Assembly: GCA_965208125.1 (NCBI GenBank)
Contig: OZ242320.1
Span: forward strand, 3,072,001 to 3,136,000
Direction of reading: 5' to 3'
DNA from: Candidatus Latescibacterota bacterium
GTDB lineage: Bacteria > Latescibacterota > UBA2968
DNA length: 64,000 bases
Part shown: positions 16,935 through 34,898 of the stretch, one piece after another
Position numbering within the stretch: position 1 is the first letter of the stretch
Layout: every line of letters begins with the position of its first letter
Notes under the pieces: model-generated
The model's input: the letters and a program-made list of their open reading frames with translations, nothing else
Database searches by the model: none
Told to the model about the DNA's origin: nothing
Translations under genes and position numbers: made by a program

Positions 16935-18350
16935 GTGCATTTGTCTAAGGCACAGGTTGCATCCGGGGAGGCAGAACCGCTGTCTCCTCGGGCGGCTCGG
17001 CGCGTGTTGATTAGCCTGATGTTTTCGTCTATGCTGATGCCTATGGTGGCTGGCATGTCGCGGGTTGCACTGCCGGTTATTCGGGATGATTTTGGGATTC
17101 CAGCAGATTTGACGGCGTGGGTTCTGGCAGCTTTTATGCTGCCTTTTGTCGTTTTGATGCCGATTTATGGGCGTTTGAGCGATGGCGTTGACCGGCGGTT
17201 GTTGATTCTGCTGGGGACTGTGATTTTTGGCGTTGGTTCTGCGATGACATTTCTGGCACCGAATATGCGCTGGTTGATGGCTGGCAGAGCGATTCAGGGT
17301 ATTGGCGTGGGGGGGATGACGCCGATGGGTATGGCGTTGCTTGTGTCGATTTTTAGTGCGGGAGAGCGCGGGCGCGTCCTGGGTACGTGGAGTGCGGTGG
17401 GACCGGCGATGAGTTTTTCGTCGTCGTTTGTCGCGGGTCTTCTCATTGCGCTTTGGGGGTGGCGCGCCGCTTTTGTGCCGGGGCTTTTGCTCAGTGTTGT
17501 GACTTTTGTCGCGATTTACAGGGGGGTGCCTTCTCAGGTGATTGGGGAGGCATCTAAATTTTTGCGGCAGTTTGATTGGGGCGGGGTCGGGCTGTTGTCG
17601 GGTGGGATTGTGTTTTTGATGTTTTATCTGTCCAGTCGGTCTGTGACGGGGGTTGCCCCGTTTGAGGATTGGCGATTGCTTTTGGGCGCGGGAGTGTTTT
17701 TCGCGGGTTTCTGGTGGTGGGAAAGAGGGCGGAGAGATCCTTTTCTTCCGCTCAATTTTTTTGGCAATCGCATGTTTTGCCGGGTGACGTTTTGCGCTTC
17801 GATGCGGATGTTTGTGCAGGGCGGTATTGGGGTGTTGATGCCGCTGTATCTGGTCGATGTTCACCGCATGGGGCCGGCACTGTTGGGCGTGTTTTTGATT
17901 ATTAGTTCTGCGGCGATGACGCTGATTGTGCGGTTTGGCGGGCAGATGTCCGATCGTTTTCAGAGTCGGTGGCTGGTGATGATTGGGATGTTTGTGCAGT
18001 TGACGGTGATGCTGGGCTTTGCCCATTTGTCCGATTCGATTTCGACATGGGTTATTGCTGGCCTACTGGCGTACTACGGGCTTGGGGCGGGGTTGATGCT
18101 GGCTGCATTGCACAGTACGGTTATGGGGACTGTCGATTCAGACCAGATGGGTGCTGCTGCAGGGCTTTATAGTATGTTGCGGTTTATGGGTATGGCGATC
18201 AGTACAGCACTGGTCGGGGTGGTGTTGCAGTTTTTCTTCGATGCAAATCTGGCTACACTCGACGCGTACCAGAAGGTGTTTATGGTGCTTGCGATATTTC
18301 CCGTTCTGGGGATGATGGTGGGGTTTGGGTTGCGAGAAAATAGGGGATGA
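16935..18350 (+). CDS. MFS transporter (DHA2/EmrB-like, about 14 TM)
   Basis: GRLSDGVDRR motif A, GRAIQGIG, many TM helices. Confidence 0.92.
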   Translation: MHLSKAQVASGEAEPLSPRAARRVLISLMFSSMLMPMVAGMSRVALPVIRDDFGIPADLTAWVLAAFMLPFVVLMPIYGRLSDGVDRRLLILLGTVIFGVGSAMTFLAPNMRWLMAGRAIQGIGVGGMTPMGMALLVSIFSAGERGRVLGTWSAVGPAMSFSSSFVAGLLIALWGWRAAFVPGLLLSVVTFVAIYRGVPSQVIGEASKFLRQFDWGGVGLLSGGIVFLMFYLSSRSVTGVAPFEDWRLLLGAGVFFAGFWWWERGRRDPFLPLNFFGNRMFCRVTFCASMRMFVQGGIGVLMPLYLVDVHRMGPALLGVFLIISSAAMTLIVRFGGQMSDRFQSRWLVMIGMFVQLTVMLGFAHLSDSISTWVIAGLLAYYGLGAGLMLAALHSTVMGTVDSDQMGAAAGLYSMLRFMGMAISTALVGVVLQFFFDANLATLDAYQKVFMVLAIFPVLGMMVGFGLRENRG

Positions 18351-18475
18351 AATACGTCAATCATCACTCAATAGCCAAGGTTATATACGATAGTTAAAGA
18401 CTTGACGCTGTAGATAAAAAAAAGCCTCCAATTAAAAGGGGGTTATGTAGGATAGTGACCGGGCATATAGAGGCT

Positions 18476-19129
18476 TTACTGCCATTCTGGTGGTTTACGA
18501 AAAGTACCATTCGCATCAGTCAGTGTACCAGGAAGTTGACTGCGCTTAAGAATGCTGGGTCTAATTTCGCCTATAAACGTGGCGTATCTTTGAAGGTCTC
18601 TTGATTTTCTAATTATCTTTCGTGTGCCTGTATGTGGATCAATTGCACCAGTAGGAAATGCGACACCTACCTTCAGGTTTAGGTCTTGGGTCACAATTCG
18701 TAAGGCTTCTGATAAATCAGAATCATTTGATACAACAATAGCAACATCATAATCCTTTTTGTAAGCATCGTTTAACAGATGAACAGCCAAATTGACATCT
18801 GAACTTTTTTCTTCGGTTCTCAAAACTTCCACAGTGTTATGTGGTGGTGATGCTAATGGTAGTCTAACTTTGCGGGTCTGAAATCTTCCTTCAATAATTT
18901 CAATTTGTGAAAAAGTCCTTAAAGCCCGCAAATATATTTGTTGACGTACTGGTTTTCCCATGTCATCAGGGCGCGATTGTACAACCGAAGTGAAATACTT
19001 AATTTTATGAATCGTGTTTTGCGGGTATCTTTTTTGAACTAATTTAACTATATCCAACCACTTATAAGGCGTACCCTGAACGGCTCTATAATATAAATTA
19101 AGCCCATCAATATAGATATTTGTTTTCAT
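18476..19129 (-). CDS. NYN/LabA-DUF88 (PIN-fold) ribonuclease
   Basis: YIDGLNLYY, EEKSSDVNLA, VSNDSDL acidic catalytic motifs. Confidence 0.9.
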   Translation of the reverse strand: MKTNIYIDGLNLYYRAVQGTPYKWLDIVKLVQKRYPQNTIHKIKYFTSVVQSRPDDMGKPVRQQIYLRALRTFSQIEIIEGRFQTRKVRLPLASPPHNTVEVLRTEEKSSDVNLAVHLLNDAYKKDYDVAIVVSNDSDLSEALRIVTQDLNLKVGVAFPTGAIDPHTGTRKIIRKSRDLQRYATFIGEIRPSILKRSQLPGTLTDANGTFRKPPEWQ

Positions 19130-19139
19130 TAAATCCCCT

Positions 19140-19212
19140 AAAAATACAGGAGCCGTATAAAGATTCTATACGGCTCCGTGCCCTGCTCCCGAAGCAACAG
19201 GGGTGGTTAATT
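19140..19212 (-). ncRNA. Candidate ~70-nt structured leader or antitoxin RNA upstream of the NYN gene
   Basis: Hairpin CCCUGUU-G-cUUCGg-G-AGCAGGG, then terminator stem GGAGCCGUAUAGA/UUUAUACGGCUCC with U-rich tail; G-U pairs fit the minus strand. Confidence 0.6.
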
Positions 19213-19218
19213 ATTTGT

Positions 19219-19247
19219 ATTATACAAAAGTAATAGCATAATATCAA
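19219..19247 (-). promoter_or_regulatory. Sigma70-type promoter for the leader RNA and NYN gene
   Basis: TTGATA-17 nt-TATAAT on the minus strand. Confidence 0.75.
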
Positions 19248-19286
19248 GTTTTTTTGGTCACTATTCTACATAATCCCCTGTGGGAC

Positions 19287-20611
19287 GGTCAAGTCCGAAA
19301 AGTTCTGTAAAATTGTAGCTTCGTGATATAGGGGTCAGAGCGTTTATTTCCAATCCGTCATGTCCAGGTAGCGTCTGCCGGTGATCCACTCGTCAGACCA
19401 CTCCATACACAACGCGCCGATGAGACGTTCACAAGCCTTTTGATTGGGGAAGATCTGCACCACATCGGCACGTCTTTTGATCTCACGATTGAGTCTCTCC
19501 AACAGGTTGGTGGTACGAATGCGTCTTTGATGCTTTTGGGGAAAGTGGAAGCAGGCCAGACAATGGATAATATCCCGGTCTATTTTGTCCACTATATTGG
19601 GCAGTATCTCTTCATAGGTGTCCATCATAGAAGATAGGCGGTCTTGTGCAGTGGCAAGATCGGGGGCATTGAAAACGTCTTTGAGTGCCTGTGCGACTTC
19701 GCGTTGATGCTTCGGCGGTGTGATACCTTTGATATTTCGGTGAAAGTGTGTCTGACAATGCTGCCAAGCGGCCCCCTGAAAGTGTCGTTTGATGGCGTTT
19801 TGTAAGCCTTCGTGGTGGTCAGAGATGACGAGATGCACACCCTTTAACCCACGCTTTTTAAGGTCTTTAAACAAGTCCGCATACGTGGCTTCTGTCTCAG
19901 TGTGCGCCACGTCAATGGCCAAAATGTCTCGGTGCCCACTCCCTGCGATCCCAGAAACGATTAAGACGCCTTCACAGGCGACCTGCCCCAAAGATCGGAT
20001 GTGGAGATAGGTCGCATCAATGATCAGATAGGGATACGCCTGTTCGAGAGGTCGCCCCCGCCAGGCGTTGATGTCTGCATCCAGGTCTTGACAAAGCTGT
20101 GAGATGTGAGACTTTGAGACGCTGGTCCCACATAAGGCTTCTGTGATCTTTGTCACCCTACGTGTGGAGACCCCTTGCAAATACGCCTCTTGAAGGGCAA
20201 GAATGAGGGCTTTTTCACTGCATTGAAAGCGTGAGAATAACTCACTGCAAAATCGCCCTTCCCGATCTTGAGGCACGCTTAGCTCGATACGGCCTACGCG
20301 CGTCTTGAGTATCCGCGGCTTATATCCGTTACGGTAGCCCGTACGAGTGGTCGTTCTTTGATAGGGTTCGGCTTGTAAAAACGACGTGATCTCGGCTTCG
20401 AGGAACTGTTGCAGGAAGCGAGTCACGGCCTGATTGAGAAAATCAGGAGCATTCAAAAGTGCAAATTGCTCTCTTTGAGAAATTTTAATATCTTTGGGGT
20501 GAGTCATCGTAGCCTCCAAGTTAGGGTTTATATTTCGTTCACCCCTATTTTAAGATTTTTCTCGGAGCTACGGTGACTTTTTACTTCTTACAGAAATTTA
20601 AGGACGCTATC
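19287..20611 (-). mobile_element. IS256-family insertion sequence (1325 bp)
   Basis: Imperfect 24-bp terminal IRs (...GTCC...TTCTGTAA) and 8-bp target duplication TGTGGGAC at 19279-19286 and 20612-20619. Confidence 0.92.
19344..20507 (-). CDS. IS256-family (Mutator-like) DDE transposase
   Basis: RNGY, VPQDR, GVSTR, IDA, ISD, QHCQTH, RTTNLLERLNREIKRR; GGAGG RBS. Confidence 0.95.
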   Translation of the reverse strand: MTHPKDIKISQREQFALLNAPDFLNQAVTRFLQQFLEAEITSFLQAEPYQRTTTRTGYRNGYKPRILKTRVGRIELSVPQDREGRFCSELFSRFQCSEKALILALQEAYLQGVSTRRVTKITEALCGTSVSKSHISQLCQDLDADINAWRGRPLEQAYPYLIIDATYLHIRSLGQVACEGVLIVSGIAGSGHRDILAIDVAHTETEATYADLFKDLKKRGLKGVHLVISDHHEGLQNAIKRHFQGAAWQHCQTHFHRNIKGITPPKHQREVAQALKDVFNAPDLATAQDRLSSMMDTYEEILPNIVDKIDRDIIHCLACFHFPQKHQRRIRTTNLLERLNREIKRRADVVQIFPNQKACERLIGALCMEWSDEWITGRRYLDMTDWK

Positions 20612-20980
20612 TGTGGGACAGAGTATTTTGCTGGGTATGATAATAATATCGGCTTCTTTCAAAAGGCAATGCCAAAGATTCTAAACAAGATGATTGCCGC
20701 GCTTGGCGACAACCACGACGAGACAATCTTTCTTCTCGGATCAGATTATGAACAATGGAGCGTCTTGCGTTGTGGTAGCATCCGTCCAACATCCGGAGAG
20801 CCGGGAAAGGCAGACCGAATTGGTATAGACTTGCACAAGGATGGCAGTGACTACCGTAAGGGAAAGGGAAAGGCACTGATTGTCGAAGACCTTGCGGCCT
20901 ATCTTGCTCAGACCATTCACAGAGGCGATTTTTCAGTCTTTGAAAGGCAGATGCCCTTTCTATTCAATACACAATTTTAA
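20612..20980 (+). pseudogene. Probable 5'-truncated ORF of unknown function next to IS256
   Basis: Open frame to a stop at 20980. The annotated start lies inside the IS end, and the reconstructed pre-insertion sequence has no upstream in-frame start; an internal ATG near 20669 is possible. Confidence 0.35.
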
Positions 20981-21170
20981 GGAAAAAAGAAGGAGGGCCT
21001 ATGACTATGTGAAGCGTAGAAACGGAAAGCCCCAATTAAGTTTTTCATGAGGGAGAAACACGGTTTGTTGGGGCTTTCTGTTTTTTTATGCTCAACAGAA
21101 AGCCACGCACGCAGTATATTGTGCGCTGATATGCAAGGTCTTGCCCCTTCAACGCAGAAAGGATCTGACA

Positions 21171-23242: not shown

Positions 23243-23327
23243 AAGGTATTTATGGTGTTGTTTTCGATATTGCCCGTTCTGGGTATGATCGTTGGCTCTG
23301 GTTTGCAAGAAAATAGGGGGTGAAATA
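23243..23327 (+). pseudogene. Diverged copy of the 3' end of the MFS gene (18273-18354)
   Basis: KVFMVLFSILPVLGMIVGSGLQENRG* vs KVFMVLAIFPVLGMMVGFGLRENRG*, and the same TGAAATA across the stop. Confidence 0.88.
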
Positions 23328-23482: not shown

Positions 23483-23848
23483 TCATTTCCGCGGTAAGAG
23501 TCGCTGTAGGTCACTTAAGTCCTTGCAATTTTGATAAAGTGTTAGAACCCCGCGATTAAGATGCGCTCGGAAATAGTCTTCTAAACCATTCTCAGTATCT
23601 AACCCGTCATTGAAACAGCGCTGTTTTAATAGAGCAACAAAGAGGCTGTCCCATTCACCTGTTAGTGTATATCGATTGAACTCCTGCCCATCTTCGGGAT
23701 AAACATCTGCGTTGGGCAGGCCACTCTCTCGAAGCGACAGGCAGAAACCGATCCGGCATAAGATATTTGGCGTTAATCCCGTTCTGCCTTTTAAATGTCT
23801 AAGCCGGTTGGAGGCTTCCAAGCAGAGCTTGATCTTGTTGAGTTTCAT
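23483..23848 (-). CDS. dndE: DNA sulfur modification protein DndE
   Basis: LK.RTGLTPNILCRIGFCLSL...FRAHLNRG; follows dndD. Confidence 0.92.
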   Translation of the reverse strand: MKLNKIKLCLEASNRLRHLKGRTGLTPNILCRIGFCLSLRESGLPNADVYPEDGQEFNRYTLTGEWDSLFVALLKQRCFNDGLDTENGLEDYFRAHLNRGVLTLYQNCKDLSDLQRLLPRK

Positions 23849-25871
23849 GATCGGACTCTCTGTGTTTCCAAAAATAACCTTCGGATGCTGCGGATGATTC
23901 AGTCTCGGGACTGTATTGCAAGTGGTATGCGTGAGAAATGAATGGATTCAGTGCTTTGATATACTTTTGATCAATTTCTGTGTCAGTGGAAAGAATGATA
24001 ACCTGGTGACTGGCTTTAGAAAAGTAGCACTCTATCAGGTTGTGGCGATGGTCACTGTCAAGTCGCCCGAGAGGTGTATCGATAATTACGGGTAGTGGGC
24101 GTCCTGATGTTTGTGCCAATGCCCAGAGCATGGATATGGCGTAGATTTGTTTTTCTCCCGCAGATAACTGCTTTTTGGGAATGGCTTGACCTTGACGGTC
24201 ATAAAGGGTTACAGAGAATGTTTTGGGATCAATTTCAATACGGCGTATCATATCGCTTTTGCGGCAAAGCAGGTCGAAACATTGAGCCACAGCATGCTCC
24301 AGTTTACGCACCTTTGTTTGTGCCAGTTGATCAAAGTATTCGCCCAGAACGCCCTGGACACCATTGATCAATTTGAGACGATGGTCCATGTCTTCTTCAA
24401 GGGATAGTTCATCCAGTGCTTTTTGATATTCTCGATTGGTCTCTTTAAGCTGGTATTCATGCTGGCGGATTTCTCTTTCAATGCGCTCTGATTTGGTATT
24501 GAGTGATCCCAGGGTCTGGTTTAGATCATTCATTTTTTTGATATGCGGAGCAATTGCATCATCATCGGGAATGCGCTGTAAGTTCGTTTCGACTTTTTCG
24601 AGTTCTGTCAATGCTTTTTCAAGTTGACGGGTCTTGGCAATTACAACGTCACGACTAACTGGCGCGCCGCTTTTGGCCCAATTAATCAATTGAGCACCTT
24701 CGTCCTGAGAAAAGTTGTGTAAAATTTTAATGGTTTCAAAGTCTTCAGGAGGTTGGAATGCCTCTATGATCATAGAACCAATTTGGTCTATCAGGTTCTC
24801 ATTGTCAGCAATTGGGGGTTTTAATATTCCGTTGTTGAGATTTTCTTTTATATCTTCCCAACGAGTCTGTGCAACATCCTCCACGATGTGCCATTTTTGG
24901 ACTTCATTCTCACCTTGAACTTGCTGCGTAAGTTGCTCACATAATTCGGGTACCAATGAAAAGGGGAATAGGCGTGAGCATTCTTCTCGAATGCGGCTTT
25001 TAAATTGTTCAATTTGTGTCTGCAAAGAAGCGTGTTGAGATTTAAATTCCTGCCGTCTTTGTGCGTATTTTCCACCCGCTACTGCAAATTCGGTTTCGGC
25101 TTCTTCAATTTTGGCTGTTACACGTTGCAAATGTGCTTCAATCTGTGCCCTGTCTTGCCTTAAGTCTGAGAGTTGTTCATCAAGCGCAAATTGTCTTTTT
25201 TCAATATCTTTTAAGTATTTTTCTGTTTTTCCGTCTTGTGCTTTCTTTTTTTGACGGTTTGAATAAGTAGTCAAATCAGATTTTAACTGTTCAATGATGT
25301 CCAGACTGAGCATTGATTTGACAGATTCCGCCAGGATAGTGCCACCCTCTTCTTCAGCGAGATTTTGAATTTTTTCACCATCAAAGAAAAAGAGCTGTGA
25401 AACACCTATAGGAACCAAATCATTCAGAAACTCTTGCACTTGTTCCGTCTCAAACAGTTCTTCTCCATTTTCTTCAAGCGTCAATTGTTCTTCTATCTCA
25501 TCTTTCATAGAGTCCAATTTTTTCCAGGCTCTTTTTACAGTATAAAGGTGCTGTTCTCCAAACTTGGCGTAGGAAAACACAAGCTGGATGCTTGTATTTT
25601 TTAACTTTACACCCCCACCGCCTCTGGGGCGATGTATGCGTCCTGAAATGTACTTGCAATAGTCTCGATTGCTCATTCGACGATCAAGCGCGTTTTTGCC
25701 ATAAAGACAAAGCAGGATGGCTTCGAGGAAGGTAGTTTTTCCAGCCCCGTTTTTGCCCCCAAAAAGAATAATCGGACTTGTCTTGCGATATTTGGTACGC
25801 GGTTCAAGATCAAAGTCATGTGAACCACAAAAAAGTCCAAAATTTTGGATGGATAGGGTTTTAAAAATCAT
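23799..25871 (-). CDS. dndD: DNA sulfur modification SMC-like ATPase DndD
   Basis: GKNGAGKTT, FFFDGEKI, long coiled coil, LSAGEKQ, IDTPLGRLDS.HR, GYFW; 3' end overlaps dndE by 50 bp. Confidence 0.95.
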   Translation of the reverse strand: MIFKTLSIQNFGLFCGSHDFDLEPRTKYRKTSPIILFGGKNGAGKTTFLEAILLCLYGKNALDRRMSNRDYCKYISGRIHRPRGGGGVKLKNTSIQLVFSYAKFGEQHLYTVKRAWKKLDSMKDEIEEQLTLEENGEELFETEQVQEFLNDLVPIGVSQLFFFDGEKIQNLAEEEGGTILAESVKSMLSLDIIEQLKSDLTTYSNRQKKKAQDGKTEKYLKDIEKRQFALDEQLSDLRQDRAQIEAHLQRVTAKIEEAETEFAVAGGKYAQRRQEFKSQHASLQTQIEQFKSRIREECSRLFPFSLVPELCEQLTQQVQGENEVQKWHIVEDVAQTRWEDIKENLNNGILKPPIADNENLIDQIGSMIIEAFQPPEDFETIKILHNFSQDEGAQLINWAKSGAPVSRDVVIAKTRQLEKALTELEKVETNLQRIPDDDAIAPHIKKMNDLNQTLGSLNTKSERIEREIRQHEYQLKETNREYQKALDELSLEEDMDHRLKLINGVQGVLGEYFDQLAQTKVRKLEHAVAQCFDLLCRKSDMIRRIEIDPKTFSVTLYDRQGQAIPKKQLSAGEKQIYAISMLWALAQTSGRPLPVIIDTPLGRLDSDHRHNLIECYFSKASHQVIILSTDTEIDQKYIKALNPFISHAYHLQYSPETESSAASEGYFWKHRESDHETQQDQALLGSLQPA

Positions 25872-27316
25872 CTTTGAACACTTGCCTTTCGAGATCGCCG
25901 CTTTAATTCCCGTTCAATAGCCTCTTCCTCATTTTGCCATTCCTCGGTGAGCACTGCTTCGAGCTCTTTAGAGATGTTTGAACGATAAGCCATCCCATTC
26001 ATGGAAAGTTCGACATCCAGTAGCTTCATAACAAGTTTGGGTGGAATATTTCGCTCCTCACAGATTTTCTCCAATATAGAACGATCCTGGGGAGTAAAAC
26101 TCCCGGTATCATCTTCGGCCCAGGTTAAGTCATCACCTATAACCTCCTGGTAGATCTTCGGTACACTGTCTTCCCAATCCTGTTCTTCCATCCGCCAGAT
26201 TCGTCTGATTTCCTGTAATTCTTCGGGATGAATGAGTGTGGCATTCGGATCAGGCCCATTTTCACGCACTGATTGTTGTGCTTGTAAAACCATGCGTAAA
26301 ATTTCTTGCCGAATTCTCAAAAAATAGGGGCCAGGAACTACTTTTTGTTCGTTGCTGCGATCCAGCATAATGCGTCCATTGCGACGTTTGTAGTCTCTGT
26401 ATTCTCGCTTCTTTTCCGGATCTTGAGTAGCTGCCAACCAGTCGCGTAATTCCAGTAGTGGCTCCATCCAGTATTCGCCATTATCAATCATTGACTCCAT
26501 TGCTTTGTCCTGGGTTACGACTGTACAGACCCAACAGCCAAAGCGACTGTTTCCACAGGAAGGCGTTGTGGTGTCAATAACAAGGGGACATTCACCTGCC
26601 TGGGAGTTCTTGTAGAGTGCAACGAGGTCTCGATTGTTATTGCCCCAGGGAGATTTCCACTGGAGCAAATAGGTCCAGACATCATTGGTTGTAAAGTTCT
26701 CAATTGGCGTGTACACGTAAGCGCGAGGCAGTGTTGAATGCCGCTTGAGGCGATTACCCGTAATTTTGTGCAAGCTCATAACCTGAGCACGCGTTGCACT
26801 TTCATCGCTACGCACGCCGAGTACCATAATGACTTCGCCGTATTCTGCAACTCGCTCTAAAATGAATCGATTGGCGGGATCAATTTTCATTCGCTCAGTA
26901 CACCAGCGAAATGTTGTGGTAGGTGCAGGATAGCCACGACCAATGAGGTTGGTCCAAAAGCTATCTTCCATCAACGGCATAACTTTTTCAGCCTGAAAAG
27001 GCATGCCCTGGATTTTGGCTGCTTCGTTAATTCGATTCAGTGTGTTGTCGATGTAATCCACGATAACAGGTGTTTCGACCAGTGTATCGGATGATATTAC
27101 AAAGATCATTTTTTCCCGTTTTTCGCGCGGTAGTTCAGAGATGGCATACCATATTGCTTGAAGGGCTGTGGTGGAATCCTTGCCGCCGCTGTAACCGATA
27201 ATCCAGGGACGGTCATCGGATAAGTAAAGGTCTCGGATTTCTTCGTATAGGTCTTTTAGACCTTCACCGCTTAGATTCGAGGCACCATTCAAATCCTGTT
27301 TTCTAATTTCTATCAT
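25868..27316 (-). CDS. dndC: DNA phosphorothioation sulfurtransferase DndC
   Basis: PWIIGYSGGKDST PP-loop, RWCTERMKI, ECP...SCGNSRFGCWVCT. Confidence 0.96.
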   Translation of the reverse strand: MIEIRKQDLNGASNLSGEGLKDLYEEIRDLYLSDDRPWIIGYSGGKDSTTALQAIWYAISELPREKREKMIFVISSDTLVETPVIVDYIDNTLNRINEAAKIQGMPFQAEKVMPLMEDSFWTNLIGRGYPAPTTTFRWCTERMKIDPANRFILERVAEYGEVIMVLGVRSDESATRAQVMSLHKITGNRLKRHSTLPRAYVYTPIENFTTNDVWTYLLQWKSPWGNNNRDLVALYKNSQAGECPLVIDTTTPSCGNSRFGCWVCTVVTQDKAMESMIDNGEYWMEPLLELRDWLAATQDPEKKREYRDYKRRNGRIMLDRSNEQKVVPGPYFLRIRQEILRMVLQAQQSVRENGPDPNATLIHPEELQEIRRIWRMEEQDWEDSVPKIYQEVIGDDLTWAEDDTGSFTPQDRSILEKICEERNIPPKLVMKLLDVELSMNGMAYRSNISKELEAVLTEEWQNEEEAIERELKRRSRKASVQR

Positions 27317-27321
27317 GGCGT

Positions 27322-28437
27322 TTACTTTCTGTTCCGATTTGGTTTTTCAAAGTTGGCTTCCAGAATAGCTTCCTCTTCATTTAGGGCAAGGCCAAGGCGT
27401 TTTTTCAGGACATTGGTCGTCAGCCTGATATTATCCTGAGACCGACGAATCTTGCCCAACTCCATCGCACGTCCTTCCCATAGTGCTTTATTACTGCGAG
27501 ACCAATTGACTCTTTTGAGCCGTTTTAATCGCGTTTTCCAGGCGTCCGGATAGTGTTTAAGCAAATCAGCACCTGCAATGCCCATGGCTTTGAGCGCGAC
27601 ACCGTGAACGTGAAGATAATTCTCTCGAAGCGTAGCAGCAACAACATCTCCATCTGCTATCTGTTGCCATTCAGAAATGTGAGTGGTCATTTCCATCCAG
27701 AACTCATAGGCAATGACTTCGTCTGCTTCAAAAACAGAATCTTTTCTATTTTTACGCAGGAGCATTTGAGTGGCTTGATAGATATTGCTCAGGGTGAAAA
27801 TTTTAGTAGATCGATTTGAAATCGTCGTTTTTTCGAGTTCTGTCTGTCCGTCGAATACGGGAACACTTTGCACCAGATTACGCACCATCCCGGCCATTGG
27901 GTCGCGTTGGTCGTAGAGTATTCCGAGTGACCGCGTGGGACGCACGGCGTGCTTGTTCAGATCAGCGAACATCTGCTGGCTACGCTTCAAGCCAGCGTCG
28001 ATAAACAACACGACAGCAATGGTTTCGTATGCCAATTCGGGACATTCTTCCAACGCCAATTGAAGTGCCGCCCGCCGATGTTGACCATCGTTCACAATAA
28101 ACCTGGCTTCCATCGGCACAATGAGTGTACCGATCTTGCGATTGCCACCCCGTTCTGCGGCGGGTACAAACTCGATATCCCCATCAACAGAGGCCGTGAT
28201 CGCCGAAAAACAATAATTATCTTTGTTTTCGATGATGTACCGCGCAATTTCTGGCACCCGTGATCGATTCAAAACACGCTGGGCACGCATCTCTGCGGGC
28301 ACTTCGCTTTTTTCATCAAAACAAAAAAACCTCGTGATGTCCCTAAGAGAACACATAACGAGGTAATATTCGCGTTTTGCTTGAATACCACGAATCGCAG
28401 GAAAAGGGATTTTACCCTCTAAATCCGTTAAGTTCAT
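27322..28437 (-). CDS. dndB: DndB, DGQHR-domain regulator
   Basis: FPAIRGIQA, RAQR.LN..R, DGQHR, QQMFADLN. Confidence 0.95.
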   Translation of the reverse strand: MNLTDLEGKIPFPAIRGIQAKREYYLVMCSLRDITRFFCFDEKSEVPAEMRAQRVLNRSRVPEIARYIIENKDNYCFSAITASVDGDIEFVPAAERGGNRKIGTLIVPMEARFIVNDGQHRRAALQLALEECPELAYETIAVVLFIDAGLKRSQQMFADLNKHAVRPTRSLGILYDQRDPMAGMVRNLVQSVPVFDGQTELEKTTISNRSTKIFTLSNIYQATQMLLRKNRKDSVFEADEVIAYEFWMEMTTHISEWQQIADGDVVAATLRENYLHVHGVALKAMGIAGADLLKHYPDAWKTRLKRLKRVNWSRSNKALWEGRAMELGKIRRSQDNIRLTTNVLKKRLGLALNEEEAILEANFEKPNRNRK

Positions 28438-28452
28438 GATTTTCAGGGCCTC

Positions 28453-28530
28453 TTGGAAGTTTGTTTATTCCATTTGGAAGTTTGTTTTGCTGTTGTGCTA
28501 AAGTTTAACTCCTATCTCTATAAAAGTCAA
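28453..28530 (-). promoter_or_regulatory. dndB promoter with two 14-bp direct repeats downstream
   Basis: TTGACT-17-TAAACT (28530 to 28502); TTGGAAGTTTGTTT at 28453-28466 and 28474-28487. Confidence 0.65.
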
Positions 28531-28568
28531 TAACAAAGATCAGGATGGTGAACCCACCTTACAATTTC

Positions 28569-30266
28569 TTATTTAGAAGTAAGATCATCTAATTTTTTTT
28601 CTATTGTACTTGATTTGAAGGTATTCATTACTCGAGACAGGTCTTTATCACTGAGTCCCCTAACTATGGGTTTCAATTCCTGGATAGCTTGGTCATAAGA
28701 TGCCTCTAGTGAATCTGGGTCTTGCTCTATTTGATTAATAAAATTTTCCAACTTAGAAGGACCACAATTTTTCCAATTTCCTAATTCATAATACCCAACT
28801 AAACGTGCCACATGAAAGTGACCATATTTCGCAATAGCACTCTCAATTCCTGTAATTGATGCATCTTTTTGTAATTGCTTATTCATCTGATAACATTGTT
28901 GATATAATAGATACGCTGCCAATAATATTTCGACTTCAGAACTAAAAATATCTTCATAAAAATCTAACCAGATTTTAGACTTTTGAGCCATTGCGATGGC
29001 AGGTTTTTTTTCGACCACAGACAAATATGCTTGTCCAACCTTTTCATTTGAAATAACCTTCTGCTTTTCTTGTCTGCTTAAGTCCTTAAATTCTCTTGGT
29101 TTTTTCTCATAGTGGTAGTTTCGGTTCTTGAAGAGTGTACTTAAGGTCGATTGGAGGGTATCATTAGAACGTAGATCACGACTTGACACGGCATTTTGAT
29201 TATTAGTTGTAAGTGTAATTTTATCCACAATTTTTCGATCTTGAGTTTCATAGATTTTCACTAACAAAGAAACATCATCTTGTAATTTGCCTTCGTTAAG
29301 CGCCTCGACAAGTGTTAGTGAGGTTTGCCCTCCATTTACAATTTGGATACCATCGAGTTGTACACAAGGGACTGATTCTTGTATTTCAAAACTATCGCAG
29401 GTAATCGTTATTCCGTTATTGTAAAACCAAAAATATCCAGATTGGGTATCGTCTTGCGATGTCTTCAGGATTTCCTTATTTACCTTTCGATTAACGCCGA
29501 GAAAAGTTCTTACGTTTTCCTCAAAAATCACATCAATATGCTTTTTAACTAATTCAGCCAAATGTATCCCTTTAACTGTGCAAATAGCTGCTCTTACTCC
29601 TTTTGATTGGAAACGTATAACAGATTTATTATTGGCATCATATTCAATGGGTAGCTTTTTGTTTCTTATCTTATCTTTCTCTTTTTTATTTTTATTTTCT
29701 TCTTCAATAAGCTCGTTGGGTCCTAAAGTATAAAATTCAAATTCTTGAAATTCTTCATTTTTAAACTTACTTCTCGTATCTGCAACTTCCTTTTCGTAAT
29801 AGGCAGAAGGTTCTTCTATACTGTTAGCTACATAATAGACTTTTATATTTAAATTTTTTTTCCCAAAGGCTCTTTCTATCAAATCTCTTATATCTCCAAT
29901 TTTTAGGACTAAATCTTCATTTGTTAGTGTTTTGTACTTTTCTTCTGGATGTTTAAATATCCAATCAAGACCATCTCTCATTTGTACTATTATAGTACTT
30001 CTAAAACTGGAACTTTTTACTTGAACAAGATGTACAGTTGCTTGTCTATCATTTGCCTCTATATGAATGATATCAAACTGCCTGTCATCACTACCATCAA
30101 CTAAGTCGGCTTCGAAATCTGTATCATTAAATTCAGTATTAAATAAAACACTATATACATATCTCAAAAAAGCTACATCTTTTGTAATCTTCATTGATTT
30201 TTCGATCTCTGAAATTTGGTCATCAATGATCTGCTTTTTTTGTTTTAATTGCGCTTGATTATTCAT
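28569..30266 (-). CDS. AIPR family protein
   Basis: DG.DD..FD...LVQVK N-terminal nuclease-like motif; FEENVR.FLG, FWFYNNGITI, QIVNGGQT, TNNQN, DLRSND; very AT-rich. Confidence 0.9.
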   Translation of the reverse strand: MNNQAQLKQKKQIIDDQISEIEKSMKITKDVAFLRYVYSVLFNTEFNDTDFEADLVDGSDDRQFDIIHIEANDRQATVHLVQVKSSSFRSTIIVQMRDGLDWIFKHPEEKYKTLTNEDLVLKIGDIRDLIERAFGKKNLNIKVYYVANSIEEPSAYYEKEVADTRSKFKNEEFQEFEFYTLGPNELIEEENKNKKEKDKIRNKKLPIEYDANNKSVIRFQSKGVRAAICTVKGIHLAELVKKHIDVIFEENVRTFLGVNRKVNKEILKTSQDDTQSGYFWFYNNGITITCDSFEIQESVPCVQLDGIQIVNGGQTSLTLVEALNEGKLQDDVSLLVKIYETQDRKIVDKITLTTNNQNAVSSRDLRSNDTLQSTLSTLFKNRNYHYEKKPREFKDLSRQEKQKVISNEKVGQAYLSVVEKKPAIAMAQKSKIWLDFYEDIFSSEVEILLAAYLLYQQCYQMNKQLQKDASITGIESAIAKYGHFHVARLVGYYELGNWKNCGPSKLENFINQIEQDPDSLEASYDQAIQELKPIVRGLSDKDLSRVMNTFKSSTIEKKLDDLTSK

Positions 30267-30291
30267 TTTATTTCTCCAATTAAGAACAGGA

Positions 30292-30759
30292 CTATACGGA
30301 TAGTTCCCCTATAGCTTGATCCAATCTCATCTTATATATCGGCAAAAACACCTCTATTGTTCTTGGCCGATCATCAAACCATTCATTCGCCAGCACATCG
30401 TATCCGCCATACGAATAACGGTTGATCTCTCGCATGCCATCATCGCTAAGCCAAGATGGTTCCTGTGGATTAATAAGACGTGCAATCTGATCATGCACTT
30501 GACTCTTCTCCGACATGCTGACACCCATCTCCTCCAATTCTTTGCTCAGAAATAGTGCAATAATGACTCCTCTCTGAGACCGATATAGGCCAGGAAAATT
30601 ATTTACTAAATCTGTTGCTTCTCCAGTAGATATATTTTTTTTACGGCCCATAGCCAATCCGGCCATGAGACAAAAGTAGTAAGTATCGAAATCAAGCTCT
30701 AACTTGGGCCTTATGTCTCTAAACCACTTCCGAGCGTCTTCGCGCAACCTAAACGGCAT
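30292..30759 (-). CDS. PbeD-like (DndE-related) small protein
   Basis: FD.YYFCLMAGL, Y..GG motifs; last gene of the helicase-small protein-ATPase module. Confidence 0.6.
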   Translation of the reverse strand: MPFRLREDARKWFRDIRPKLELDFDTYYFCLMAGLAMGRKKNISTGEATDLVNNFPGLYRSQRGVIIALFLSKELEEMGVSMSEKSQVHDQIARLINPQEPSWLSDDGMREINRYSYGGYDVLANEWFDDRPRTIEVFLPIYKMRLDQAIGELSV

Positions 30760-32728
30760 TTATAGGCTCCTCTTCAAGTTGGAATCCTTCAAAATACGTC
30801 TTGCCGTGTACACACCATCCGTCATCACTCTCTTCGGCGTGTTCACCATTTAAATTATCATCAGACTGCATATCTTTGCGAAACATCGTTATATATTGTA
30901 TATCACCATCAGCCGATGCTGCTTCAAGCGATGGTAAAAATCCTTCTCTTTCACTCGAAATCGTAAAGGCTATAAACTGATGAGAAAGTTTTGGCACTAA
31001 CTCTGCTACCTTGGCGCGTACTTTGAGATCAATTGGATTGGCCGGGCTATCTACAATAAACGGCAATTGATGCTCTGTCCTGTTAAACAGCGTTGCTAAG
31101 AAAGCATATCCAATAGATAAAGTCTCACCAACGCTGCCAGCTTCTTGGCCTCGTAGAACAAGCGATTGGGTAATTTTTTGAATGCGAATAGTATTTGATG
31201 GCATAAGTTCTTCAATGCGTTTATTAGCTTCCCGGCATAGATCAACACTAATTCCCTGCTTTGCCTTATTAAGTGCTCTCTCGATTATTTTGGTCATCAT
31301 ATCCCCCTTGGCTTTTAATTCCAATGTGTCCGTCGCCTTTGCCAATTGATGTTCTGCGTTCTTCAATCGGTCTTCCAATACCTGAATACCATAGGTATAT
31401 TGATCTCTTCGTGACGGATCAGGGTCCTCATACTTGCTCATATCATCCTTTAAGCTACGGCGTTCTTCCTCTAATTTGTTAATTTCTTGTTCGACTTTCT
31501 CCAGTTCAGGGTCATCGGCTACAGCTTTATTCTTTACGGCATCTCGCACTGTTTTCGCGTGTTCTTCTTTATCTCGAGCGTCATCAAGAACGGAGATTTT
31601 TTGTTTTAGTTCGGCTTCAGGTGAGTCTGCTTCAGGGCCCACGAAGTTTGCAACATCTCCCTTTAGCTGATTTAGTAGTGATACATCATCCGATCCCATA
31701 TACCGATCCGCCTGACCTTTTAGATGCGCACGTATGGCATCAGTAATGCATCGTCCACAAATACATTCTGCTTCGTCAGCTAATTCCTCAAAAAACTCTC
31801 GTGCTGCGCTTTCCGGTAACTTAGCTCGATCAAGGCTGTCTTTGAGAGTAATCATCCTTACAGCAAATGAAGATGACAAACTATGAGGATTTCGCATATC
31901 GATTAGGACATCGTGTGCTGCTGAAGCAACATGACGTTGTGCTTCTTTAAGGTTATCTTCTTCTTCTTGGAGTCGAGCCTTAATTTCTTTATGTTCAGTA
32001 AGTGCTTCTTCGAATTGTTCTTTCTTTATTTTTAACTCTTTCTCTACCTTTTTGTATTCGGTATTTATGTCGTCCTTCTCTTTCTTACGTTTTTCCAATA
32101 ATTTCTGTAGAGAGTTTACTCTATTACGACGTTGTGTAAGCCCTTTTTGTTGTGTGACACCTCCCTCACGAGATGTTTTTTCTTTCCAATATTCGTCAAT
32201 TCTATTAGTCATGTTTGGGAATAAACTTAGTTGGAATAAATCCTCAATAGCCAGTTGTGCCCGAGTATAATTTTGCTTGAGTAACTGATCTGCTAACTCG
32301 CCATCAAAAACAAAGAAATTGACAAATTGTGGCTGGCAGAACTTTTCTATTTTAGGGAAAGGGTGGAACCCTTCGCTATTTCCTAATGACGATGTTGTCG
32401 AATACCTAACGCTACCATCATCGAAGTCAAAATCCATTGTAATAGTGAGTCTGCGTGTATCACAAATCAGGATAACCTGAAATTGTCCACTACTGCACTG
32501 ATAATTTCTTTTTTTTAGCGACCGTACCTTATCAGCACTCCACTCTTCTGCATTCCCCGAAAGTGCTGCCCGAAGTAATTCAAGAGTAGTTGTTTTTCCC
32601 GTTCCATTAGGCATCTGAATCAATGAAATTGGATAAATGTTCTGTCCATCTTTTAGGAATGATACCTGATGGTCTGGACACCGCAGTCCTTCGGCACTCC
32701 ATCCAGCAACTTTGATGACTACAGCCAT
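30749..32728 (-). CDS. PbeC-like SMC/Rad50-type ATPase with CxC hook
   Basis: PNGTGKTT, FFVFDGE, coiled coil with CICGR, SVGE signature variant, IVDSP. Confidence 0.75.
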   Translation of the reverse strand: MAVVIKVAGWSAEGLRCPDHQVSFLKDGQNIYPISLIQMPNGTGKTTTLELLRAALSGNAEEWSADKVRSLKKRNYQCSSGQFQVILICDTRRLTITMDFDFDDGSVRYSTTSSLGNSEGFHPFPKIEKFCQPQFVNFFVFDGELADQLLKQNYTRAQLAIEDLFQLSLFPNMTNRIDEYWKEKTSREGGVTQQKGLTQRRNRVNSLQKLLEKRKKEKDDINTEYKKVEKELKIKKEQFEEALTEHKEIKARLQEEEDNLKEAQRHVASAAHDVLIDMRNPHSLSSSFAVRMITLKDSLDRAKLPESAAREFFEELADEAECICGRCITDAIRAHLKGQADRYMGSDDVSLLNQLKGDVANFVGPEADSPEAELKQKISVLDDARDKEEHAKTVRDAVKNKAVADDPELEKVEQEINKLEEERRSLKDDMSKYEDPDPSRRDQYTYGIQVLEDRLKNAEHQLAKATDTLELKAKGDMMTKIIERALNKAKQGISVDLCREANKRIEELMPSNTIRIQKITQSLVLRGQEAGSVGETLSIGYAFLATLFNRTEHQLPFIVDSPANPIDLKVRAKVAELVPKLSHQFIAFTISSEREGFLPSLEAASADGDIQYITMFRKDMQSDDNLNGEHAEESDDGWCVHGKTYFEGFQLEEEPINAV

Positions 32729-32925
32729 TACTTTTCTCCATCTATTAAGCAGTTTTCATACAGCAAATCGAGACGACGAGACACAGAATCTTTGTCGGTC
32801 AAACGTTCGTTGCCGTTTGCAACGGCTTCAAACCAAGCGATTAATTTGTTCGCTAATCCTTCATTTTGACCAAAGTCTGCAACAGCTTCTCTGATAGCTT
32901 CTTGTATTTTTGCATCAGTACTCAT
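32728..32925 (-). CDS. PbeB-like small protein (CxC ATPase DNA-modification-associated)
   Basis: 65 aa, AIREAV...GQ...LA.KL.AW; translationally coupled on both sides. Confidence 0.65.
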   Translation of the reverse strand: MSTDAKIQEAIREAVADFGQNEGLANKLIAWFEAVANGNERLTDKDSVSRRLDLLYENCLIDGEK

Positions 32926-34898
32926 AGTGAAACCTCAGATAATTTTTGGAGCCAGGTTTTTCTTTTTTGATCTGAATTGTCGGGATTTTGAGGATCAGGG
33001 GCACGTACGAAGTCAATAATATTAGCGCGTTTCTGAGGATTGGATGGATCAACTCTAAGACACCGTCCCATTCGTTGAATAGTTTCCAGCCGAGTACGGG
33101 CGGAGGAGAACAGGATAACCGTGGTTAAATTCTGGATGTCAATACCTTCAGATAACCGATGACAGGTTATGAGACACTCTAAATTTCCTCGCGCAAAGCG
33201 TGCTAATGTTGCTGCCTCATCCCCGTCATAGTAGGTATGGAAATCGTGGCGATATTGATGCACAGTTTCCAGTACCTCTTCACCATATTCTTTAGTTTCA
33301 ACAAAAATGATACATCGCGTTAGCAAATTGGGACGCTTGTCTATGAATGTTCTAAAGATAGGAAGTTTTGCCTTTGATGTTTTATAAACCCGCGCTAGAG
33401 CTATCCAAAGTTCTTCTCGTGACATAGGACTGTCTGAATGTTTGCTTGCCTCAAAGCGCCGGTGAATCGCTCGCAATTTTTGTCTATTTTCTTCACTCGG
33501 TTGATATGTTAGTGGATAATATGAGAAAGGTGCTAAAATTTCGCGCCGGATAGCATCCGCAATGTCAAATCTAAAAATCACGGGACCAATGTGGGTTTCT
33601 ATGAAGTCTGTTCCTTCCTGATCGTATTCACGTTCAGGAGTCGCGCTAAGCCCTAACCTGAAGCGAATGGAATCCGATAAACCGGATAGGTCTTCACGGT
33701 TCTTGGTACTCCCAAGTGCGTGGACTTCATCGTGAATAAGCATCGTTTGCTCTGCTATTTGCAAAGACCGGAGTGCAGGAGCTAAAGCTTGACGCGAAAT
33801 TAGTAAGATTTTTTGATGAGGCTTTAAATGGTATCGCTCGCGGTCGTGATATTTGTTGTAATGCCGCACAATACTATATGGTCTATCTAATTCTTGGCTG
33901 ACAGGAAGCAATTGTTCATACCATTGATTTAGAAGATCTGTCCCATCTGTTGCTACGATCAGCGATTCGATTTTGTGCTGTTGAACAAGCTCTTTAAAAA
34001 TTCGCAGTGCTGTTCGAGTTTTTCCCGTTCCTGTCGCCATTTCCAATACACCGCGTTCCTCCTTCAAAAAAGTATCAATTGCTTCATCCTGATGACGCCA
34101 GCGATTTGCGCTTCCCTCACGCACAAGGGGGGGCGGTTTGGGAAAATCTTCATCGGGTGCTCTTTCTTTAATATAACGTAAGGCTTTTGGAGACAATTTC
34201 AGGATTCGGAGTCCATGAGCTTGGTTTGACCATGCTTCGGCAAATTGTTCGCATTTAACTTTGACTCTCGTAGAATCCTCAGGCAACCAGTCCCGGAATA
34301 CATCAATTGATTCATGGTTTTTTGTATGTCCCATTATTGTTTCGTTTGCTGAGCCTGTGAAAGCTACAGTCCTACCCCACGGAAATTTAAATATTCCTAT
34401 TTTTTCATGGAAAATACCTGGATCTTCAACATGCGCTGGAAAAGCAAAACGAAGCTCAAGCTTCTTGGATGCTATTAACCAGGTAAGAAGTCTGAGCCTC
34501 AATTTTATATCTTCGGGAGATTGTGCAAAAGAAAGCGCGTCGAGAACGATTTTGTCAGCAGCCTTTTGTAGAAGGGCGTCCCGTTCATCAGGGATGACTG
34601 CTGAGCGAATGGCCTCTTTATCTTGTTCTGAAAGAAGCGGCGAAATAAGCAATTGGATTTTTATGGTGTCCAATTTCGCTATACGGGGAAGCACTTTAGC
34701 CCATGTTACGAGAACGGAACTGGAAAAATATCCTACCGCTCTCTTATAGGAGGAGCAATGCTCTAAACATGGAATAAAAAAATCACGAGCGAGATCAGAA
34801 GTTCCTGAGCGGTAATGTGAATTGAACCCTTCAATAGCTGCTTTACCGGTCTCTACCGTATAAGAATATTTAGCATGTTTCTGTATAGACCCTATCAA
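32922..34898 (-). CDS. PbeA-like PLD nuclease/SF2 helicase (PT-associated restriction protein)
   Basis: YKRAVGYFSS, FHEKIGIF...FTGSANET (PLD-like), MATGTGKT, DEVH, SAT, QRMGR; start uncertain. Confidence 0.8.
   Translation of the reverse strand: MIGSIQKHAKYSYTVETGKAAIEGFNSHYRSGTSDLARDFFIPCLEHCSSYKRAVGYFSSSVLVTWAKVLPRIAKLDTIKIQLLISPLLSEQDKEAIRSAVIPDERDALLQKAADKIVLDALSFAQSPEDIKLRLRLLTWLIASKKLELRFAFPAHVEDPGIFHEKIGIFKFPWGRTVAFTGSANETIMGHTKNHESIDVFRDWLPEDSTRVKVKCEQFAEAWSNQAHGLRILKLSPKALRYIKERAPDEDFPKPPPLVREGSANRWRHQDEAIDTFLKEERGVLEMATGTGKTRTALRIFKELVQQHKIESLIVATDGTDLLNQWYEQLLPVSQELDRPYSIVRHYNKYHDRERYHLKPHQKILLISRQALAPALRSLQIAEQTMLIHDEVHALGSTKNREDLSGLSDSIRFRLGLSATPEREYDQEGTDFIETHIGPVIFRFDIADAIRREILAPFSYYPLTYQPSEENRQKLRAIHRRFEASKHSDSPMSREELWIALARVYKTSKAKLPIFRTFIDKRPNLLTRCIIFVETKEYGEEVLETVHQYRHDFHTYYDGDEAATLARFARGNLECLITCHRLSEGIDIQNLTTVILFSSARTRLETIQRMGRCLRVDPSNPQKRANIIDFVRAPDPQNPDNSDQKRKTWLQKLSEVSL

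Follow-up and report, generated by a model that had tools for sequence, protein, structure and literature searches.

The small RNA and the NYN gene at the locus

We analysed a stretch of 64,000 nucleotides, hereafter the window, from a Candidatus Latescibacterota bacterium (contig OZ242320.1, positions 3,072,001 to 3,136,000 of the forward strand), and focused on a short cassette in which a small RNA gene precedes the gene of a stand-alone NYN-domain nuclease. The initial annotation of this DNA had described on the minus strand a promoter TTGATA-17-TATAAT, a hairpin with a cUUCGg loop, a 13-bp terminator, a ribosome-binding site (RBS) and the NYN gene, and had interpreted them as a candidate RNA-antitoxin defence system of a type III-like kind. 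We recovered all these elements where they had been described. They are listed below in window positions, as read along the minus strand, together with the two ends of the cassette.

19256..19279, no strand: left terminal inverted repeat of the cassette, an IS1595-type end, GGnnATTATGTAG.ATAGTG; 24 nt, 92% complementary to 18437-18460
19219..19247, minus strand: promoter-like site TTGATA-17-TATAAT, 11/12 positions, which would serve the small RNA and, by read-through, NYN
19140..19210, minus strand: small RNA gene, with a C-rich 5' tail, hairpin 1, a short linker, a terminator hairpin and a U tail
19181..19202, minus strand: hairpin 1, CCCUGUU-G-cUUCGg-G-AGCAGGG; the loop is cUUCGg, and there is one G-G mismatch
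19140..19177, minus strand: hairpin 2, intrinsic-terminator-like, a 13-bp stem (19177..19149) followed by a U-rich tail
18476..19129, minus strand: NYN-domain nuclease gene, 217 amino acids, PADLOC family HEC-09
18437..18460, no strand: right terminal inverted repeat of the cassette, pairing with the left arm; the similarity to the second genomic copy stops here

The small RNA gene thus has its own promoter-like site and ends at a terminator before the NYN gene. The 13-pair terminator-like stem is directly followed by UGUAUUUUUA, and the RBS, AGGGGA, is located between this terminator and the NYN start, which lies 20 nt beyond the terminator. An open reading frame (ORF) check revealed no second credible ORF besides NYN in the interior of the cassette, in agreement with the earlier remark that no protein antitoxin lies nearby. 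The 90-nt leader of the NYN gene folded better than all 200 shuffles (z = -4.5). In the 2.8-kb stretch scanned, promoter-like sites numbered 4 (shuffles, 4.4 +/- 2.0) and terminator-like sites also 4 (shuffles, 2.9 +/- 1.9). Taken alone, these scans of the window are at chance level; it is their conservation in relatives that places the features above chance.

The NYN protein of the window matched Pfam PF01936 (E 1.6e-10, 42.1 bits for a cut-off of 24.2) and the PADLOC model of HEC-09 (PDLC04163, E 2.9e-38), its residues 4-217 being aligned with model positions 5-203 of 203. The nearest folds to its AlphaFold2 model (pLDDT 87.7) in a Foldseek comparison were 2qip and the MARF1 NYN domains 5yaa and 6fdl (MARF1 NYN E 2.6e-6); a PDB sequence search with the NYN family profile gave no match at E <= 0.01. 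The acidic motifs, previously noted as intact, turned out to be invariant: D8, D111, D136, and D138 are unchanged across 17 aligned homologues, and given these Asp residues the nuclease looks active. The catalytic fold and the acidic active-site residues are common to the bacterial NYN protein and to the MARF1-, Regnase-, and PRORP-type NYN ribonucleases. The latter are eukaryotic, multidomain and without a dedicated small RNA gene, whereas the bacterial protein carries a conserved C-terminal extension of about 60 amino acids. The stand-alone NYN family comprises 5387 proteins at E <= 1e-5. HEC-09 was defined as an Hma-embedded candidate defence gene, encoding a stand-alone NYN protein that has a MARF1-like fold and occurs within defence systems or next to them (Payne et al., bioRxiv 10.1101/2024.01.29.577857; PADLOC-DB 2.0). 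The available part of that account covers the protein alone and makes no mention of an RNA partner (bioRxiv 10.1101/2024.01.29.577857). The NYN protein of the window belongs to this same family.

Conservation of the RNA and its linkage to NYN genes

The small RNA is a conserved, structured family that is absent from Rfam 15. The short RNA proposed in the initial annotation is therefore real, and the structure upstream of the NYN gene is conserved among homologues, where it covaries. The conserved RNA consists of a hairpin and a terminator and spans about 66-70 nt. A covariance model, R1, was built from a family alignment of 43 sequences (A3), and it matched the window RNA at 65.1 bits (E 1.3e-13; G000:C1:3091140-3091210(-), which corresponds to 19140-19210 of the window). 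Alignment A3 exhibits two hairpins with compensatory changes at 17/19 pairs, a covariation score somewhat favoured by the derivation of the tested structure from the same alignment. Paired cells amounted to 92.1% versus 73.2% in shuffles, with 0/500 shuffles as high, and double changes to 148 versus 45 in shuffles; sliding the pairing register dropped the paired cells to 35-49%. When positions 18000-21000 of the window were searched against Rfam 15, the best match over the RNA was rliA, at 20.6 bits for a gathering score of 50, and 12 homologous loci gave no Rfam 15 match at the RNA.

The consensus across phyla has the order promoter, AUAUCCCCCC, 9-bp hairpin with a UUCG loop, linker YGCG, long stem, and UGCUUUUU. 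The conserved base of the long stem reads AGRCC/GGYCU, and the stem base of hairpin 2, GCGAGRCC/GGYCUC-U-GC, is kept across phyla. The most conserved unpaired letters of the RNA are those of the C-run at its 5' end. At 16 places of same-genus genomes, the 22-nt hairpin 1 is letter-identical, and the corresponding NYN proteins are 66-90% identical. Hairpin 2 of relatives shows the compensatory change from GGAGCC/GGCUCC to GAAGCC/GGCUUC, and at same-genus loci the terminator was either altered by compensatory substitutions or exchanged for a different terminator.

We then considered 80 NYN loci from many phyla, whose NYN proteins are at most 53% identical to that of the window, except for L021. 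Model R1 gave exactly one strong match (E <= 0.01) in 77/80 loci; since 42 of the 80 are among the sources of A3 and match by construction, the independent support comes from the 35 other matches and from a set of viral contigs. A weaker match obtained with filters off at L100 (E 8e-5) brings the RNA to 78/80 loci, and at the other two (L051 and L053) a contig edge lies on the side where the RNA is expected. Among IMG/VR viral contigs the RNA was found beside 33/52 NYN loci, mostly with NYN proteins of at least 39% identity, and divergent and convergent arrangements were also present in this set. A terminator-like hairpin was detected in the region -160..+8 on the sense strand in 37/77 usable loci, versus 7/77 on the antisense strand and 41/1401 control windows. 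The position of the RNA relative to NYN at the 78 loci was as follows.

RNA upstream, same strand as NYN (tandem): 55 loci, the start codon following at a median distance of 13 nt; 52 assigned by script and 3 by coordinates
RNA far upstream: 1 locus, about 550 nt from NYN
RNA upstream, opposite strand (divergent): 7 loci, all Acidobacteriota
RNA just past the NYN stop codon, opposite strand (convergent): 15 loci, in high-GC Actinomycetota-type genomes, the RNA gene abutting the stop codon or overlapping it by up to 2 nt

The RNA is thus on the strand opposite NYN in 22/78 loci and is not solely a cis leader, so that action as a cis attenuator only, a possibility raised in the initial annotation, does not account for it. 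Where the two genes are in tandem, the distance from the RNA end to the NYN start (median 13 nt) is too short to accommodate a promoter. A promoter-like site (at least 10/12) was present at the RNA 5' end in 29/78 loci versus 1/390 control places. The RNA is its own transcription unit and a separate partner gene of NYN, and it is genetically tied to the NYN family in nearly every locus examined, in any orientation. Two loci (L096:1360-1500 and L213:1059-1188) carry two RNA units of the family in tandem ahead of one NYN gene.

Several kinds of RNA coexist within the genus and the phylum. The genome of the window contains a type B RNA with its NYN (NYN-B) in two copies and a type A RNA, a different two-hairpin RNA, with a divergent NYN; in many relatives, type A and type B RNAs stand in a row ahead of a type B NYN. 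A third two-hairpin kind, type C, is located on the strand opposite NYN; its 5' tail is again C-rich, its stems covary, and it has a terminator. It was present beside all 10 same-phylum NYN genes of 35-40% identity that were examined, and in 10 of 12 more distant loci overall. Read on the NYN sense strand, it appears as an A-run, a GC hairpin, a second hairpin, and a G-run. The type C pattern was lacking at L166 and L169, the latter having, by eye, its own hairpin and terminator. The presence of several RNA/NYN types within single genomes is the look that specific RNA-protein pairs would be expected to have. In L170-L178, L184, and L185, type C occurs in several copies, upstream as well as downstream of some distant NYN genes, and in these genomes the type C element may also be a dispersed repeat.

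The RNA was present at 10/10 intact NYN genes of the clade in the same genus. We also found there 10 further RNA copies, 4 beside broken NYN genes and 6 without NYN, and two of the orphan RNAs are already altered in the UUCG loop. One orphan RNA with an altered loop (L258, G072) is followed, at the usual place of NYN, by an XRE/HigA-like helix-turn-helix gene. Two NYN genes (L182/L163 in G089 and L183/L164 in G088) are each interrupted by about 1.2 kb of inserted DNA; in the protein match, their halves overlap by 5 to 23 residues.

Possible function of the RNA-NYN pair

The RNA and NYN probably work as a pair, and we infer that the RNA acts on the NYN protein. By analogy with type III toxin-antitoxin systems, we tentatively favour, just short of calling it probable, a two-gene module in which the RNA is the antidote and NYN the nuclease toxin. 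In such a module, a strong promoter would produce an RNA of about 70 nt, made of an unpaired C-rich 5' tail, a 9-bp UUCG hairpin, and a long terminator hairpin. Most transcripts would halt at the terminator, making the RNA plentiful in the cell, and read-through transcripts alone would reach the NYN gene, keeping the nuclease scarce. The RNA would bind its cognate NYN protein and hold the RNase inactive, as a type III antitoxin does. If RNA synthesis were stopped, by phage shut-off or by loss of the element, the nuclease would be freed and would cut cellular or phage RNA. We favour this role because a strong promoter and a strong terminator ahead of a promoterless nuclease gene should give much RNA and little protein, because no protein partner is present, and because the behaviour of the module is that of a selfish or defence cassette, found with transposon ends in the window, on prophage contigs and beside defence genes.

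The type III systems (ToxIN, CptIN, TenpIN, and AbiQ/antiQ) share with the present module the succession of a promoter, a non-coding RNA, a leaky terminator, and an endoribonuclease gene, a gene order from which an excess of RNA over protein is predicted. They also lack a protein antitoxin and are found on mobile elements and in defence islands. In contrast, their RNA is formed of tandem repeats cut by the toxin, instead of a single two-hairpin unit, and their toxin has the ToxN/AbiQ fold, instead of the NYN fold (the sole Pfam domain here); moreover, the RNA gene can here be divergent or convergent to the nuclease gene. The features described in the initial annotation were thus confirmed and its interpretation was partly supported: the type III-like layout holds, with the RNA gene directly upstream and a terminator between the two genes (tandem in 55/78 loci), and the repeat array and the ToxN/AbiQ fold are missing.

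A number of observations weigh against an antidote role. Without a repeat array and a ToxN fold, the module is not a member of the ToxIN family and its likeness to type III systems rests on layout; Tandem Repeats Finder detected no array in 18400-19400, and a repeat search of the leader likewise found none. The NYN gene is about 10 times longer than the RNA gene, and target size alone therefore predicts more RNA copies than intact NYN genes. We gave for this reason little weight to the excess of RNA copies in the genus, the more so as two of the orphans are decaying. The divergent loci come from one phylum, as do the convergent ones, which points to few independent rearrangements. No usable RNA-seq support for the small RNA was found among assembled contigs; a contig from a metatranscriptome run matches 18468-18931 and belongs to a relative about 91% alike, but it is no proof of transcription and is silent on the small RNA. 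HEC-09 cloned with its native promoter region in E. coli gave, according to the available part of the source, no protection against any phage tried (bioRxiv 10.1101/2024.01.29.577857). Finally, the near-obligate linkage, the orientation independence, and the cognate RNA types would fit equally well an RNA that NYN requires as its subunit, guide or substrate.

Such an RNA would activate or direct the nuclease, forming a ribonucleoprotein with it or being matured by it, which seems to us rather unlikely. Its C-rich tail or UUCG hairpin would provide target or partner recognition, and the 5' C-run indeed contains the most conserved unpaired letters; in small RNAs, conserved unpaired runs typically mark the seed or contact regions. 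However, a tail that is near-identical in all phyla is not a variable guide, and the combination of much RNA and little protein with a terminator in between is a design known from antitoxin RNAs. We consider it unlikely that the RNA is mainly a cis-acting leader, with a constitutive terminator throttling NYN, a hairpin that is maybe an autoregulatory site bound or cut by NYN in its own mRNA, and secondary cases on the other strand. The tandem loci, with the RNA directly upstream of NYN, suit this view, as does the ability of the window read-through transcript to pair its C-run with AGGGG of the RBS. Attenuator leaders, and the leaders through which RNase genes (e.g., rne and rnc) are autoregulated, likewise resemble most of our loci in having a terminator between promoter and gene. 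They differ from them in that no alternative fold, and in particular no antiterminator pairing, is conserved here, and in that an RNA encoded on the opposite strand lies outside the NYN mRNA leader. The RNA located about 550 nt upstream of NYN and the type C RNAs, on the opposite strand in 10/10 cases, speak in the same direction, and the pairing with the RBS is not general, the second genomic copy of the cassette having GGAGA in place of the pairing partner.

Base-pairing of a type I-like antitoxin appears very unlikely. In this scheme, the C-rich tail would pair with the G-rich RBS of NYN, and a convergent RNA with the 3' end of the mRNA, blocking translation or triggering decay. The complementarity of the tail to AGGGG at the window RBS and the 15 convergent RNA genes that abut or overlap the NYN stop codon are compatible with it, and the convergent layout resembles the txpA/RatA-type systems of Bacillus. 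Nevertheless, GGGG was not enriched in the region -22..-3 of NYN starts (8/77 versus 23/240 control ORF starts), no Shine-Dalgarno sequence can be recognised at several of the NYN genes, and the RNA of the tandem loci is sense to the mRNA. It is barely credible that the conserved element is a folded single-stranded DNA site for recombination or mobilisation, comparable to attC or to the ends of IS200/IS605, rather than an RNA. DNA hairpins can covary too, and the module is mobile; yet the element is immediately preceded by a promoter and followed by a U-tract, the sense being always the same, and it is only on the sense strand that G-U pairs are frequent (at one pair, for instance, 17 of 43 sequences have UG and 12 have UA). 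Besides, as a stability motif the C(UUCG)G loop belongs to RNA and not to DNA, and the mobility of the window cassette is accounted for by IS1595-type inverted repeats located elsewhere.

If the antidote role holds, the module would bring a new toxin fold and a repeat-free RNA architecture to the RNA-antitoxin systems, which are to our knowledge known so far from few families. It is possible, although we would stop short of calling it probable, that it represents a new and widespread class of RNA-protein toxin-antitoxin or defence systems, in which a single two-hairpin RNA restrains NYN, mutually specific types coexist, and a minimal cassette moves in several ways (by transposon ends, in prophages, and by insertions beside defence genes). 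Judging from literature listings, we found no description of the NYN-RNA pair, be it as a type III toxin-antitoxin system, RNA antitoxin, RNA motif or anti-phage non-coding RNA. The RNA constitutes a new family for RNA databases and a marker for locating RNA-NYN modules. The HEC-09-type NYN proteins form a candidate defence family whose sole published test, in the part of the source available, was negative, and the existence of a dedicated RNA gene alters how they are to be cloned, tested, and annotated; experiments that omit or overexpress the RNA could miss an NYN phenotype.

Mobility of the module and its genomic surroundings

Beyond the initial annotation, the unit turned out to be a mobile cassette bounded by inverted repeats, and the RNA-NYN pairing to be very widespread. 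The cassette between the inverted repeats is 843 bp long and encodes no transposase. A second copy in the same genome is 91% identical, its promoter and both stems being identical except for one G-U pair replaced by G-C. A third cassette with the same ends harbours a divergent broken NYN, which is preceded by a different hairpin together with a strong terminator. Two further elements of this genome have the same IS1595-type ends, one with an ORF of 65 codons adjacent to a tRNA gene (L012:1495-1860) and one of 460 bp with no obvious gene (L014:1500-1960). In searching the genome for the terminal repeat we used 7 matches with 0-1 mismatch, matches with 2 mismatches being at chance (5, versus 10 for the reversed control at up to 2 mismatches). 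By eye, 8-bp direct repeats flank copy 2 (AAATGATT), copy 3 (TTAATAAA), and the 460-bp element (TTTAATTT); no 8-bp target-site duplication was seen at the flanks of the window copy. The ggnnatTAT end motif together with an 8-bp duplication is presumably the mark of the ISNwi1 group. Many short forms occur in related genomes, where a terminator-like hairpin is the first feature inside the IS1595-type end.

The cassette end directly precedes IS1595-family transposase genes in L105 (DDE_Tnp_IS1595 E 3e-37, with a zinc ribbon) and L121 (E 2.6e-32). At the second inverted repeat of the L105 element, only the last 10 letters or so are cassette-like, and no clean duplication was seen. A search of the genome of the window for an IS1595 transposase retrieved only a sub-threshold fragment of 34 positions. 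Since it shares its ends with IS1595 elements and has no transposase of its own, the cassette is a non-autonomous IS1595-type element. It has the same terminal inverted repeat as IS1595-family insertion sequences with passenger genes, and is comparable to mobile insertion cassettes and miniature inverted-repeat transposable elements in that no transposase is carried.

Inverted repeats of the window type surrounded distant NYN homologues in 1/76 loci with usable flanks (L021). L062 was also flagged for inverted repeats; this locus is repeat-rich and contains direct repeats too. In at least 7/76 distant loci (L040, L058, L064, L078, L100, L027, and L062), direct repeats of 50-110 nt bracket the RNA-NYN module, and in L078 and L040 the flanking repeat is a second copy of the first 100 nt or so of the downstream gene. 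Such direct-repeat flanks suggest a second insertion route that spares the start of the target gene.

Two larger features of the window neighbour the cassette.

19287..20610, minus strand: IS256/Mutator-family insertion sequence with a 391-amino-acid transposase (Transposase_mut E 6.9e-121), lying against the left end of the cassette
23483-34898, minus strand: defence cluster with dndE, dndD, dndC, dndB, an AbiU-like gene, a PbeC/DndD-like ATPase, and PbeA (PADLOC)

The cassette sits in a defence island that comprises PDC-S57, dndBCDE, AbiU, PbeA, and a PbeC-like gene, the PDC-S57 match being a T5orf172 protein near the cassette. A direct repeat of 72 nt (83% identity; 18283-18354 and 23256-23327) duplicates the 3' end of a major facilitator superfamily (MFS) transporter gene. 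The block of about 4.9 kb between its two copies contains the NYN cassette, the IS256 element, the T5orf172/PDC-S57 gene, and two family-less ORFs, and has the look of an islet that was inserted; no integrase was seen there. We rejected the IS256 transposase as mobiliser of the cassette: the ends of the IS256 element are unlike those of the cassette, and the element inserted separately, with a 9-nt duplication of its own (GTCCCACAG, at 19278-19286 and 20611-20619). This element is single-copy in the genome, save for one 62-nt fragment elsewhere, and contigs of other sequencing runs end at 19287, at its edge.

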